Part shown: positions 54,397-62,029 of the stretch, one piece after another
Layout: every line of letters begins with the position of its first letter
How positions within the stretch are numbered: position 1 is the stretch's first letter
Assembly (NCBI GenBank): GCA_948470565.1
Contig: CAOKPF010000004.1
Span: 220-64,219, forward strand
DNA: 64,000 nucleotides
Origin: an uncultured Clostridium sp.
GTDB lineage: Bacteria; Bacillota; Clostridia; TANB77; CAG-465
Reading direction: 5' to 3'
The notes under the pieces: model-generated
Databases searched by the model: none
Told to the model about the DNA's origin: nothing
What the model saw: only the letters and a program-made list of their open reading frames with translations
Made by a program: the position numbers and the translations under genes

Positions 54397-55521
54397 ATGA
54401 AAAGTATAAAAAATTATATAAAAAAATTAATACTAGGTTGTGCTTTTACACTTCCTATCTGTTTTGGATATAGTACAATTAATGCAACCTCAGATATAAT
54501 TGCAAATTGCGTAGATGACGAATGTAGTGAGCTATATTTTGTTGTAAAAAGAACACCATCACAATTTGATACAAAGTATTATAACGGAGAATCAGTTGTT
54601 GTTACAAATTTAAAAGATGAAACTACATTATCACCGCTTATGGGTTCATTTGAAACAGCAAAAGTTTTAATATCTGAAGCACAATATGAAGAAAAGAAGG
54701 CAAAGGCAAAATATACTAATGAAAATGATATAAAGTGGGTACAAAGATCTGATAATCAAATATTTTATAACTCATTAGATTTACTTAGAAATTATCTAAA
54801 ACCATATATGTATAAAATTGCAAATAAGCCTGATATATCATCATATTTTACATATTCTGATGATATTGAAAAGAAGTTTTATATTACAGGAAATAACGAA
54901 TATGTATCATATAATGTAATAGATTCTAAATTACTATCACTACTTAAGAATAGTTATAGTGAAGATAATAGTTTTCTTGAAGATGCAGGGGATTATTATA
55001 GGATATATTTATCTAATGTATATAGGGGTCAGGATGTTATAATTGGTAGAGATTATCAGTTTATGTATGATATAGACGATAGCTCAAAAGTACCACAAGA
55101 TATTGAAACTAATTGTTACTTTTATCAACCAATACTTATACCAAAATCAGTTATAAATAGTACGAAAAGAAAACAAGTGTTAGTTATGTATAAGTATGAA
55201 AATGAAGATGGAAAATACGAGTTAAAATCTAGTTATCTTATTGATGAGATGCTAAGTTTTACTGATGGATTAAAGGAATATACTACAACATATAATGCTA
55301 CACAAAATGAATATTATCATATACTAGGAGAAAATAATAATACTTATGAATATGCTGGTATAAGACTTGCTAATGGAGATAATCTAGAATTTTTGCAAAA
55401 TAATATTGATAAGAGTACAAATAAGTATTCAACTGGGTATACTGAGTATAAGTTTTATATAAATCATTTATCAGATGATGTACAAGTTATATGCTATTAT
55501 TTTGATTTGAAAACTGAATAA
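54397..55521 (+). CDS. Secreted protein, paralogue B1
   Basis: Signal-peptide-like N-terminus. NCVDDECSELYF near the mature N-terminus. Collinear with the first ~370 aa of the 1700-aa protein. Confidence 0.55.
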   Translation: MKSIKNYIKKLILGCAFTLPICFGYSTINATSDIIANCVDDECSELYFVVKRTPSQFDTKYYNGESVVVTNLKDETTLSPLMGSFETAKVLISEAQYEEKKAKAKYTNENDIKWVQRSDNQIFYNSLDLLRNYLKPYMYKIANKPDISSYFTYSDDIEKKFYITGNNEYVSYNVIDSKLLSLLKNSYSEDNSFLEDAGDYYRIYLSNVYRGQDVIIGRDYQFMYDIDDSSKVPQDIETNCYFYQPILIPKSVINSTKRKQVLVMYKYENEDGKYELKSSYLIDEMLSFTDGLKEYTTTYNATQNEYYHILGENNNTYEYAGIRLANGDNLEFLQNNIDKSTNKYSTGYTEYKFYINHLSDDVQVICYYFDLKTE

Positions 55522-55543
55522 TTATTTGAAAGGGGGATATTTT

Positions 55544-59900: not shown

Positions 59901-62029
59901 TATTATTTGCTAAAAATTCGCAATTATTAAAAGAAAACTTAGATACATATACACATAGTAGAGTTGCAGACTTTAATAAACTTAGATTTAAACTTACATT
60001 AACAAATGATAACTTTAAAATAGATAGAAGTGGAGTTGAATTATTCCAAGAAAATAAAAAAGAAAGAGAAGAAGATATTAGAGATGCTGATACTGATTGG
60101 GGAATGATGAGTACTAGAAATACTCCTACTAACTATACAGCCTATGCAAATGAATATATGAGTGGTATGCCAACAAGTGTACGTACAACTAATAATGACT
60201 TTGATACAACACTAAATATTCCATATTGGAAATGGAATGGAATAAGAGTACCATCAGCAACTATAAAATATAGATTAATGACAGGAAGTAATTTTAGTAG
60301 GGAAGGTGCATACAATAGAGCAAAAAGTGTAACAGTAGGTATGGATTGTGAAGTATTTCCACCATCGCCTAAAAAAGATTATACTGAAACATCAGGTGAA
60401 GGAGGAATAGGTGAAGTAAATAAAGTAAATGTATTAACACCATTAAACTTTAAATTAAAGATAGAAACACCAACAGTAGTAAACCATTCAGATAGTAGTG
60501 ACATAATTACATTACAAAAGAATGCAGTATTTAAAGTTATACCAACATTTAGTGGTACAGCAATAGCAGGATATAATAATATAGATACCAATGAATTTGT
60601 AAAATATACAATGGTAAAATTTGATTTTGATATAACAGGATTACAGATACATGGTACATATACAGATGATGATGGCAATAGAGAGTATGACTATTATGAA
60701 AATATACCTGCTGGAACTTGGATAAAAATACCACCTGGTGGTTATCTTGAAGCTAAACCTACAATGTATACAGAATCAGAGGGAGTTACAGTTGATCGTG
60801 CAGCAAATTCAGTTAATGGAGTAGCATTTACAATAAATAATCCACCTGAACTTACAACAGCAACAATGAATGGATTAAATTCTAGTAGTTGGAAAAATCT
60901 TTTAACTAGTTATATAGAAAGTACTAATACAACTACAATGCCAAATTTAACAGCAACAAATCATGGTAGTTATATATCACCAAGCTCAATAAAAGGTGAT
61001 GCATATCACAGGGTACAAGATAAAATTGTTACAACTAACCTAGGTAGAATATTTGACTTTAAATTAACTGATTGTACGGATTTAAACTTTAAAGAAGTAT
61101 TTAGAAGACAAACTATATCAGATGTTAATGCAACAACAGGAACAGTATATTTCTCTGGTATAAAGAAATTAAAAATGTATTATACTTATGCAGATATTGG
61201 ATATAACGATTATGAGGAGGTAAGTAATACATCAACAATATTACCACTTGGACCATACAAGAGTACTAATAATACTATGATTGAGGCACCAAAACTTGGA
61301 TATAGAGTATCATTTGACTTAAAGACAAACGGTAGTCTAGGTGCAGCAGAACTTTCAACTAGAAGTGTTAAAATAACACCAAGTTATTACTATATTTCAA
61401 AAGATGGATCTAATTTTACAAAAGATATAACATTGTATTATAAGAATTCAACAGGTCAATATACTAAATTTGTAGATAGTGGATATAAAATATACTTTAA
61501 ACCAAATGATGGATATAGAAATGTAGCAAATTCTTCAGTTACACCTAATAGTAGATATTTATCAGATGCACTAAAGGAATTAAATATAAGCTCATCAAGC
61601 GGATTTATATTAGATTCTTCTATGATGGATACATCTGCTGATGACGATATGTTTATTCAAGCTTGGTATGGTGAATTTAAATTACCAAATTCTACAATAG
61701 CAGTAAAAAATGGTTCTAGTATAAACAAACCATTAACAGATGGATATATAGGAGTAATATTTAAAATAGAATGTACGGATAAAGGTACTAAAAATGTAAC
61801 AGTAGCATATGATAATGAAGACAAAGGATTAGATGGGTCACGTCATAATACTAGTCAATGGGATTATGAAGGATATATAGGCTTTAATAGTCCAGGAAGT
61901 AATGCAGATGGACTTAGTATAAAACTTGAAAAAGGAGATTGGAACATTAATGATGATATGTATAACAAAATAAAGGGAACTGTATTATTGTATGATACTG
62001 ATAATAGAGCAGCAGAGGACTTTGACTAG
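56927..62029 (+). CDS. Giant secreted protein (1700 aa), paralogue B2; candidate adhesin/filament-associated protein
   Basis: Signal peptide MKKINVKIFLVFVILFYFLCTKQIAYC. SDCEDDGCTSVIF, and a Cys/Pro linker CPPGTPGCPDIPTPDCGD. T/N/Y/K-rich beta composition. No C-terminal LPXTG or hydrophobic anchor. Ends ...AAEDFD. Confidence 0.6.
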   Translation: MKKINVKIFLVFVILFYFLCTKQIAYCELTSDCEDDGCTSVIFHHLADPSQKSIDYYEGRKITYTEYNKFDEVVRANTRLRNAPGYVDISGREVSNKSKQRAPATGFIEVFGSSSSIPTGSGVIDSYATKFATGPSESQYFGSVYSGTEIAYQILNHGSTGYRSRNRLTKNMLNEIYEQEDKLDKVTKNGKNYLVVYFSKVYISKTERVASTPGSSPVKYKYNIDEYPEQPHSIIAENAFFRRLLIPIFPKKEIIVQYKYKQDDGTYKVEAHEKIEVELKKSTYNKTLTYDGEYNGKFNQKMNEGYTYTGVKVYSDNNKDTAKNKVDSSGNAKGWKTTSKTIELKNNSKTYEVGKTYKTDKTYTVVAFYFDKLEYEVNYKLTDVDGNDVLLGKGSSGFIKLTNSNRKNFVTRRKEKQQNLTIKIQNSTQEITWEGKKYKYNGGLKFMGKSLQKARDKQTANDSVANWGKNKMYTAIASNNWYGDGVEFVEPHGYVIEFAFEEGPVKVKQVYANHYVIDANTGEVIGKLPYNFASKKETIGGSLVVNGTDTRTNKRISIPSGTDVYFKTDLTSSVGLTPAPVNSADYEYAGLTSGVANTSTEAAANLAACTRSAQSSYYNSSQNKYIMVNFYYKKKGDCPPGTPGCPDIPTPDCGDISLVGRLDFKSAASTGSDYTTSTAKVAPDMDYIPSGKDLDVYIGEAYPYHLAGAKYEEKTTGRVAKYTSLTLHSYMLIWGTSHAGCYPDHKKVNPEGSSLQKEEKTTVTDTWETGGSAPARENKKNYSSDKFGRSYKAETIEYTDFNTTETEIAITDSYGKQIGTKTRYTRTCTQTTKKYKEAFYPGDTCKPYNESKSITDINKGFSYRVNYEHQYYVITNFKMYRIDRVVLHDKDTNTGGLLFGSSDADYDIALSSAYEDSVSSGGLKNHETTPKFSTDGNIYDDTVIGGSMSLGADNSRLAFRKDGCGEPIIRDSVDSPTPPDYSHVGANSECEVLFAKNSQLLKENLDTYTHSRVADFNKLRFKLTLTNDNFKIDRSGVELFQENKKEREEDIRDADTDWGMMSTRNTPTNYTAYANEYMSGMPTSVRTTNNDFDTTLNIPYWKWNGIRVPSATIKYRLMTGSNFSREGAYNRAKSVTVGMDCEVFPPSPKKDYTETSGEGGIGEVNKVNVLTPLNFKLKIETPTVVNHSDSSDIITLQKNAVFKVIPTFSGTAIAGYNNIDTNEFVKYTMVKFDFDITGLQIHGTYTDDDGNREYDYYENIPAGTWIKIPPGGYLEAKPTMYTESEGVTVDRAANSVNGVAFTINNPPELTTATMNGLNSSSWKNLLTSYIESTNTTTMPNLTATNHGSYISPSSIKGDAYHRVQDKIVTTNLGRIFDFKLTDCTDLNFKEVFRRQTISDVNATTGTVYFSGIKKLKMYYTYADIGYNDYEEVSNTSTILPLGPYKSTNNTMIEAPKLGYRVSFDLKTNGSLGAAELSTRSVKITPSYYYISKDGSNFTKDITLYYKNSTGQYTKFVDSGYKIYFKPNDGYRNVANSSVTPNSRYLSDALKELNISSSSGFILDSSMMDTSADDDMFIQAWYGEFKLPNSTIAVKNGSSINKPLTDGYIGVIFKIECTDKGTKNVTVAYDNEDKGLDGSRHNTSQWDYEGYIGFNSPGSNADGLSIKLEKGDWNINDDMYNKIKGTVLLYDTDNRAAEDFD

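Follow-up and report, generated by a model that had tools for sequence, protein, structure and literature searches.

Giant exported proteins at the end of a Tad-like pilus operon in uncultured Clostridia: candidate non-pilin adhesins and a head-only paralogue

What might a giant secreted protein do at the end of a filament operon, and what is the status of a short paralogue of its N-terminal part encoded just upstream? The question is raised by a 64,000-nucleotide stretch of DNA (hereafter the window) from an uncultured Clostridium sp. of the order TANB77 (contig CAOKPF010000004.1 of assembly GCA_948470565.1), in which a Tad-like pilus operon ends with the genes for B1 (374 residues) and B2 (1700 residues). 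Both the abundance of this uncultured gut order and its pilus cluster have been linked to checkpoint immunotherapy response (PMC11680825). As judged by sequence comparison, B2 is a member of a previously undescribed family of giant exported proteins, defined by a conserved C-terminal domain (C-domain) that B1 lacks. Our reading, to which we give about equal chances of being right and wrong, is that B2 may be a non-pilin pilus adhesin of the PilY1/MshQ kind and B1 a free, head-only paralogue of it.

B1, B2 and the family-defining C-terminal domain

The two reading frames placed by the preliminary description of the window coincide exactly with called open reading frames (ORFs; Table 1), and its claim that B1 is collinear with the N-terminal part of B2 holds for the first ~372 residues of B2, on which BLASTP, Smith-Waterman and MAFFT agree. 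In BLASTP, residues 33-342 of B1 match residues 28-331 of B2 with 24% identity over 324 columns (E 8e-14); the Smith-Waterman score is 206 (z = 19), whereas 300 shuffled versions of the B2 segment score 49.5 +/- 8.2, at most 82; and in the MAFFT alignment the collinearity reaches the C-terminal residues of B1, where VICYYFD (B1) is aligned to VVAFYFD (B2). All of the shared blocks that had been listed were found (C-x-DD-x-C, PSQ..YY.G, Y..(I/V)Y(L/F)S(N/K)VY, LIP, YKY..DG.Y, Y.Y.G(I/V)(R/K) and YYFD), and most of them are also present in three further homologues: the resulting five-sequence alignment (A6) keeps DPS..YYNG, SKVY, Y.YNID, YKYK..DG.Y, NYNYVGVK and V.VI.FYFD. The Cys pair is not universal among head homologues, one of which has C-x4-C without the two Asp residues and one no Cys at all.

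Judged by eye and hydropathy alone, the signal peptides attributed to both proteins are borne out: each has a K-rich n-region, a hydrophobic core and small residues before a likely cleavage site (between INA and TS, and between IAYC and EL), and other members of the family carry canonical sites, with cleavage after ..VYA (before Y) or ..IYA (before A). LILGC in B1 was considered as a lipoprotein site and ruled out, with only four uncharged residues between it and the Lys-rich n-region and Leu at -2. No pilin-like N-terminal helix (Pfam Tad PF13400 or TadE-like) is present in B1 or B2, which have cleavable Sec-type signals instead. The described T/N/Y-rich character of B2 is reflected in its composition (T 9.8, K 8.7, S 8.6, G 7.5, N 7.2 and Y 7.1%), and the Cys/Pro stretch CPPGTPGCPDIPTPDCGD is present at residues 638-655. 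Regular-expression and hydropathy scans of B2 agree with the earlier observation that it has no LPXTG-like motif and no C-terminal hydrophobic tail: the sortase-type signal (motif, hydrophobic stretch, basic tail) is absent, the sole hydrophobic segment is N-terminal, and the protein has an acidic end (...RAAEDFD). SLH domains (PF00395) and choline-binding repeats, also reported missing, were not found in B1 or B2 with Pfam and NCBIfam, neither of which gave anything above noise for the two proteins. By eye, the pattern V.V.YKY..DG...Y.Y.G...V..YYFD resembles MucBP adhesins, but MucBP (PF06458) had no match in B1, B2 or three of their relatives (P0002, P0030 and P0119) even at E 0.1, and this reading was rejected as unsupported by Pfam.

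Word search with the whole length of B2 found, besides B2 itself, one relative, P0002 (35% identity over B2 1119-1700), because low-complexity words flooded the candidate list; a profile of the C-domain was required. When loci from one genome per GTDB species were scanned with the C-terminal alignment as query, the C-domain was found in 39 species-representative loci, all of them in uncultured Clostridia metagenome-assembled genomes, including Clostridium sp. CAG:921 and CAG:1219. A 32-domain profile retrieved 116 database proteins, none of which is annotated past "hypothetical protein"; precomputed Pfam assignments exist for two of them only (P0114 and P0117), and P0117 and P0118 were excluded as apparent chimeras. 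The C-domain of B2 is 32-52% identical to members from the 39 loci and the 116 proteins. Members range from 922 to 2063 residues and share one layout, in which a Sec-type signal peptide is followed by a variable N-terminal region and then by the conserved, all-beta C-domain of ~535 residues. Almost every listed member stops at one and the same position with the tail KGTV.LYD.D.RA..D(F/I/Y)x (83 tails matched, of which 60 are listed), and V568, D574, A577 and D580 are invariant in the C-domain alignment (A4). Both C-domain and tail motif are present in B2 and absent from B1.

The C-domain profile has no match in Pfam, searched with 32 members included, or among PDB sequences. An AlphaFold2 model of B2 1119-1700, built from a 90-sequence alignment, is nearly all beta, with a predicted local distance difference test score (pLDDT) of 78 and a predicted template modelling score of 0.77. 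Its Foldseek matches in PDB are generic tandem beta-sandwiches with TM-scores of at most 0.28 (a CfaB-CfaB fusion, arrestins, Gram-positive pilins, ClfB and integrin legs), and Foldseek found nothing meaningful in BFVD. The structural parsing that the preliminary description had suggested, run here on the C-domain, thus yields beta-sandwich subdomains with no close structural relative. The signature of PilY1, the PF05567 beta-propeller, is absent: B2 and the 32 members have no Pfam match to it, and no propeller appears in the model or in the Foldseek results. From the weak, generic PDB matches and the negative BFVD search we conclude that the C-domain is neither a PilY1 propeller nor an enzyme, and that no phage origin can be recognised in it. 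Pfam, NCBIfam, PHROGs, PADLOC, the PDB sequence search and Foldseek (PDB and BFVD) disclosed no enzymatic, phage-related or defence domain that could explain B2 independently of the filament genes. Weak Foldseek matches to phage tail proteins (TM-score <0.2) are what would suggest that B2 is phage-derived or enzymatic and unrelated to the filament, for example a tail fibre or a polysaccharide-degrading enzyme. With no PHROGs, Pfam or PDB match, a chromosomal setting near rho and a miaB-like gene, and conserved synteny with pilin genes, we find this hardly credible.

The pilus operon and the pairing of T and B2 genes

The window is chromosomal (~26% GC), with a miaB-like gene, rho and an anti-sigma pair upstream of the operon. 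From 39242 to 62029 all genes lie on the forward strand and are tightly packed, and no terminator-like site was found on this strand in the scanned region 49000-64000. BLAST of the window proteins against the ORFs of the 39 loci recovered the order platform-pilA-p155-p252-p131-p149-p179-p400-T-B2 wherever the flank is long enough, and the contig encoding P0002 (L001) has the same order. The place of B2 at the end of a filament operon, noted earlier for the window, therefore extends to the family, which terminates the same series of pilin genes in dozens of genomes.

The 631-residue ATPase (41872-43767, forward strand) matches CpaF structures in PDB, at just E 1e-6, and has an N-terminal transmembrane (TM) helix. 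Such a helix is believed to be unusual among type IV filament ATPases. Judged on gene content, protein sizes and topology, and not on sequence, the operon seems to be the Tad-like pilus cluster of TANB77 published by Kim et al. 2024 (PMC11680825), which comprises 927 (CpaB, 358 residues), 928 (TadZ, 231), 929 (CpaE, 280), 930 (TadA/CpaF, 640, likewise listed with one TM helix), 931 (TadC+TadB, 693, with eight TM helices) and the pilin-like 932-938. The machinery proteins of the window have 352, 237, 271, 631 and 685 residues, the last with eight TM helices; the first operon gene is CpaB-like and has a SAF domain. Both clusters thus combine CpaB-, TadZ- and CpaE-like proteins, a TM-anchored CpaF-like ATPase, a fused TadC/TadB platform and seven pilin-like genes, the products of which in the window have N-termini (a short polar leader and a hydrophobic helix) that are conserved across loci. 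They differ in that the published cluster (927-938) ends with the pilin-like genes, and the text of PMC11680825 makes no mention of an adhesin, of downstream genes, or of the giant or T family. The species CAG-492 sp900553225 and sp000434335 are reported to be without the cluster. A prepilin peptidase (A24) was found neither in the window, by a motif scan and a Pfam scan of candidate membrane ORFs, nor in the published list (PMC11680825).

Two pilin-like components deserve separate comment. The N-terminus of the putative major pilin, MDNAQKAIM(I/V)GVGLF, is identical in nine of the nine related loci shown; its leader is very short, without the G at -1 and the E at +5 of classical type IV pilins. 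The best conserved extracellular component is p400 (38-66% identity over 23 loci), which has Cys residues near its C-terminus (..YPC.xC.P) and no relative in Pfam or PDB. Its gene precedes the T-B2 genes in 31 loci, and we regard p400 as a candidate docking partner of B2.

The gene directly upstream of B2 encodes T460, one of three T-family paralogues in the window (T546, T632 and T460) that are mutually 28-36% identical and are single-pass membrane proteins of no known family. T460 has a K-rich N-terminus, a single TM helix and a conserved C-terminal domain (YPY..NVDY..YV.YVK.N.I..G..YR.R). It is separated from B2 by 18 nt and T632 from B1 by 11 nt, with a Shine-Dalgarno sequence before each start, so that the T632-B1 arrangement mirrors the T460-B2 cassette. 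Of 41 assessable B2-family genes, 33 have a T gene that ends no more than 300 bp before them, often running 3-19 nt past their start, and five others have one within 4 kb. The cassette has been duplicated as a unit in L002, L011, L013, L014 and L042. Some T relatives have a signal peptide and SLH domains instead of the TM helix and are encoded right after the giant gene (L001, where one occupies 15976-17937, and L025-L027). Of the preliminary description's treatment of B1 and B2 as a paralogous pair, the paralogy stands; the T partner and the ~535-residue C-domain, absent from B1, were missing from it.

The closest full relative, L042, carries two giants in the order p400 (63% identity)-T-T-B2 (1543 residues)-leucine-rich repeat (LRR) gene-T-B2' (1556 residues). 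Between the two giants (10001-14632 and 17789-22459), identity is ~20% in the first ~375 residues, about 50% in residues 400-650 and 92-100% beyond residue 700 (the last ~850 residues). Their 3' 3.5 kb are 89.5% identical at the DNA level, a pattern suggestive of a replaced head or of gene conversion in the 3' part. Their T partners have ~72% DNA identity over a single ~700-nt stretch only. Near-identical C-terminal halves beside diverged T genes point to a shared single-copy partner, for example a minor pilin.

On these grounds, and by analogy with known pilus adhesins, we propose that the C-domain of B2 may be a docking module. B2 would be exported by Sec and held non-covalently by its C-domain and tail on the pilus apparatus, most likely at the minor-pilin tip complex; the T protein, anchored in the membrane, would help to assemble or hold it; and the variable ~375-residue head would be displayed distally as a binding surface. 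A mirror-tree comparison of the C-domain with T, p400 and the small pilins gave r of about 0.9-0.95 for all alike, with partial r of at most 0.29, values that favour no one partner. The tight one-to-one pairing and co-duplication of T and B2, the SLH-bearing, wall-binding T members that follow some giants and the cassettes found away from pilin genes would also suit a surface adhesin that is bound at its C-domain and anchored by T, through its TM helix or SLH domains, and is independent of the fibre, with the operon as a merely co-regulated neighbour. This we judge somewhat unlikely: in L042 it is the C-terminal halves, not the T partners, that are near-identical, and the primary copy ends the pilin series in at least 31 loci.

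The variable head and the origin of B1

Homologues of the head were sought with HMMER among 1.84 billion representative proteins, using a profile of B2 1-1150 aligned with B1. Of the 13 matches, only four include the N-module: P0119 (orthologue in L042), P0123 (opening piece of the frameshifted L041 orthologue) and two short fragments, which are of B1 and B2 themselves. A diverged N-module opens the second L042 copy, and BLASTP found none in the 39 other loci. Many members of ~920 residues start instead with a signal peptide and a domain beginning REVFVRH; hhalign relates this first domain to the beta-domain of B1 (probability 87%, E 4e-6, 58 columns), a match of moderate strength. Further along B2, a hidden Markov model of beta-domain 1 gives weak matches to residues 579-632 (E 0.043) and 425-477 (E 8.3), and the stalk is matched by phmmer and BLAST in P0053, P0119, P0122, P0125, P0128, P0129, L004, L005 and L023. 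Between in-locus duplicates, identity is 46-63% in the C-domain and 25-39% in the N-terminal region. To judge from these comparisons, the head is the rare, fast-evolving, hypervariable part of the protein.

Adhesins, not cargo enzymes, typically combine a hypervariable head with a conserved base, which bears on a further possibility: that the Tad-like machine works as a type II pseudopilus and B1 and B2 are its secreted cargo, with the C-domain and tail as recognition signal. Both proteins have Sec signals and no anchor, the near-invariant tail could serve as a sorting signal, and secretion machines exist among type IV filament systems (PMC13533445). This possibility seems quite improbable given that B1 lacks the presumed signal domain and tail, that the two pilA-like copies have an N-terminus conserved across loci, that the cluster has been interpreted as a pilus (PMC11680825) and that Foldseek found no enzymatic fold.

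As for B1, its gap to T632 and the cassette layout place it in the slot of a B2 gene. It has a strong Shine-Dalgarno sequence (GAGGAGG) 6 nt before the start and stops exactly at the beta-domain boundary in A6, without the stalk and the C-terminal docking domain; lacking C-domain and tail, it cannot dock as we propose for B2. T632 and T460 resemble the second and third T genes of L042, and T546 best fits the first. The likeliest origin of B1 is a duplicated T-B2 cassette that then lost about 1300 codons (stalk and docking domain). In L042, the full-length paralogues differ in the ~375-residue head, and this is the unit to which B1 corresponds. Head-only ORFs in L014, L016 and L028 proved to be genes split by runs of N and not real analogues of B1, and no homologue of B1 was found in 5.8 billion clusters or in JGI metagenomes.

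B1 may thus be a free head, released or retained by other means than B2. It may also be a functionless leftover of a broken cassette: some 1300 residues are missing, among them the family-defining domain, and neither a second genuine head-only gene nor, in the clusters and metagenomes searched, a homologue of B1 as such was found. Yet its 374 codons are uninterrupted in an AT-rich genome, in which stop codons readily appear, despite 24% identity to B2, and the ribosome-binding site, the signal peptide, the conserved motifs and the precise end at a domain boundary have all been kept. Such a state at 26% GC is hard to reconcile with long neutral decay, and we take the relic to be a genuine but lesser possibility.

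Several observations weigh against B2 as a pilus adhesin and B1 as its free head. The monomer model packs most of the conserved tail (TVLLYDTDNR, model residues 567-576) as a strand in cis, so that only ~6 terminal residues look free, in a part of low confidence. One of the L042 cassettes lies past the LRR gene, away from the pilin genes, and no pilus genes occur in the ~7 kb fetched on the upstream side of the L041 cassette; the T-B2 pair may therefore function without the fibre. Since the C-domain is no PilY1 beta-propeller, the analogy with PilY1 is functional only. AlphaFold2 run on B1 alone gave an unusable model (pLDDT 31) and hence no structural or ligand clue to the head. Finally, B1 is the only true head-only gene found and could be a recent accident.

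A bolder version of the adhesin reading can be formulated, in which the tail would complete the beta-sheet of a TANB77 minor pilin (p400 or a neighbour) in trans, heads swapped between paralogues would retarget binding to host or mucus, and B1 would be a soluble lectin-like factor or competitor. We consider this version unlikely as it stands. If it were true, the heads would be the host-contact surface of the immunotherapy-linked TANB77 pilus, and this pilus would be, to our knowledge, without precedent among Tad-type pili and among monoderms in carrying a giant tip adhesin docked in trans in the manner of PilY1 but with an unrelated fold.

Several neighbouring features were recorded in passing. 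LRR_5 genes lie beside T-giant cassettes in L041 (5554-6984) and L042 (14672-16156 and 22630-24162), and in the window a convergent gene on the reverse strand (62103-63644) encodes a BspA-type LRR_5 and transglutaminase-core protein; the association may be non-accidental. The upstream ~7 kb of L041 also hold a miaB-like gene and PGA_cap. This locus encodes the closest relative of the B2 C-domain, P0053 (52% identity), as two ORFs, 8542-10008 (488 residues) and 10001-13126 (1041 residues), with an 8-nt overlap, a split that may be a frameshift or an assembly error. Pilin-like proteins are modular and variable: the p252 homologue in L001 (208-4701) has 1497 residues and a glycine-rich ALK_LTK_GRD-type domain, and homologues of p179 and p149 in other loci have 330-1200 residues. 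Elsewhere on the reverse strand of the window, a highly hydrophobic 171-residue antisense ORF over p131 (48090-48605) is most likely an AT-rich artefact; a C-5 cytosine DNA methylase ORF (32840-33478), which covers the C-terminal two thirds of the Pfam model, is probably truncated; and an AAA_14/DUF4143 ATPase gene (21978-22856) lies, like the methylase ORF, on the minority strand.

Table 1. Positions of B1, B2 and associated features in the window
Feature	Position	Strand	Description
B1	54397..55521	+	374 residues; signal peptide 1-30, N-module ~31-257, one beta-domain ~258-372
B2	56927..62029	+	1700 residues; stop codon included in coordinates
B2 predicted Sec-type signal peptide	56927..57007	+	Residues 1-27; not pilin-like; only hydrophobic segment in B2
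B2 head	57008..58042	+	N-module, residues 28-250 (C-EDD-G-C, DPSQ..YYEG, FSKVY, YKYNID), and beta-domain 1, residues 251-372; collinear with B1
Two further beta-domains of B2	58043..58834	+	Residues 373-636; weakly related; terminal ..F(Y/A)F.. strands (VIEFAFEE, IMVNFYYKKK)
B2 Cys/Pro linker CPPGTPGCPDIPTPDCGD	58838..58891	+	Residues 638-655; Cys 638, 645, 653
B2 middle region ('stalk')	58892..60421	+	Residues 656-1165; conserved in one subfamily only
B2 conserved C-terminal domain	60422..62029	+	Residues 1166-1700; family-defining, all-beta
B2 near-invariant C-terminal tail KGTVLLYDTDNRAAEDFD	61973..62026	+	End point shared by almost every listed family member
T460	55526..56908	+	Directly upstream of B2; true start probably ATG at 55544
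T632	52487..54385	+	Directly upstream of B1; paralogue of T460 (36% identity)
T546	50832..52472	+	Third T-family paralogue; closest L042 T gene is the first (T481)
p400	49679..50881	+	Largest pilin-like protein; N-terminal hydrophobic helix, invariant C-terminal C..C.P
Tandem pilA copies	45849-46292, 46326-46724	+	Putative major pilin; 79% identical
Tad-like pilus machinery and pilin-like genes	39242..49641	+	SAF/CpaB-like, two ParA/TadZ-like, CpaF-like ATPase, platform, two pilA, p155, p252, p131, p149, p179

Comparison with known adhesins and pili

The operon itself appears to have been published already as a putative Tad-like pilus, and the idea of a large non-pilin adhesin on a type IV filament is known; the searched literature contained no description of the giant family, its T partner, the hypervariable head or the head-only paralogue. 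Should B2 be a pilus adhesin, it would be the part of the pilus likeliest to touch host or mucus and also the most variable one between species and paralogues. It would give a handle on the binding targets of the pilus, for which B1 would be a natural soluble head-only construct; it would show that minor pilins can carry a large non-pilin adhesin in a Gram-positive-type Tad-like system and not only in type IVa pili; and it would add a new C-terminal fold and a new family of membrane partners.

Among Gram-positive surface proteins, the sortase-anchored adhesins of the MSCRAMM and MucBP types are, like B2, giant, T/N/Y-rich, all-beta, multi-domain proteins of Firmicutes, and ClfB, FnBPA and the T6 pilin are weak Foldseek neighbours of the B2 C-domain. 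Unlike them, B2 has no LPXTG motif, no C-terminal TM helix or charged tail, and no MucBP or other Pfam repeat.

Tad pili offer two points of comparison. TadG/CpaL is a large tip-associated component that is required for assembly and surface sensing and, in the case of CpaL, supplies its C-terminal strand in cis (PMC13533445). CpaL has a pilin-like N-terminus, whereas that of B2 is a Sec signal without such a helix. Of the proteins of the window operon, p400 or p179 fits a CpaL-like role better. In the Kil Tad pilus of Myxococcus, interchangeable minor-pilin 'Tips' are variable and distally exposed (PMC12075869). The principle of alternative heads on a constant base is shared with L042 and the window; the variable parts are minor pilins in the one case and the heads of a non-pilin giant in the other.

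PilC/PilY1 of the type IVa pili of Neisseria, Pseudomonas and Acinetobacter resembles B2 in more respects: each is a large protein that is not a pilin, has a Sec signal and is encoded after minor-pilin genes, and each has a variable N-terminal region, a conserved C-terminal domain and a notable extreme C-terminus, which in PilC/PilY1 is functionally critical. Paralogous copies also exist, as PilC1 and PilC2. They differ in fold (a beta-propeller versus beta-sandwiches) and in the system that hosts them, which for B2 is Tad-like and in a presumed monoderm, and the T partner has no PilY1 counterpart. PilC/PilY1 contributes a beta-strand, formed by its last ~10 residues, to a minor pilin of the PilK family, and the same C-terminal docking has been predicted for MshQ, a protein of ~1200 residues encoded after minor pilins and not counted as a PilY1 homologue (PMC13533445). 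Although no sequence relationship with B2 was detected, the MSHA pilus of Vibrio cholerae is type IVa-like and diderm and the docking of MshQ is itself predicted, MshQ, as the large product of a gene that follows the minor pilins, is the closest logical precedent for B2.

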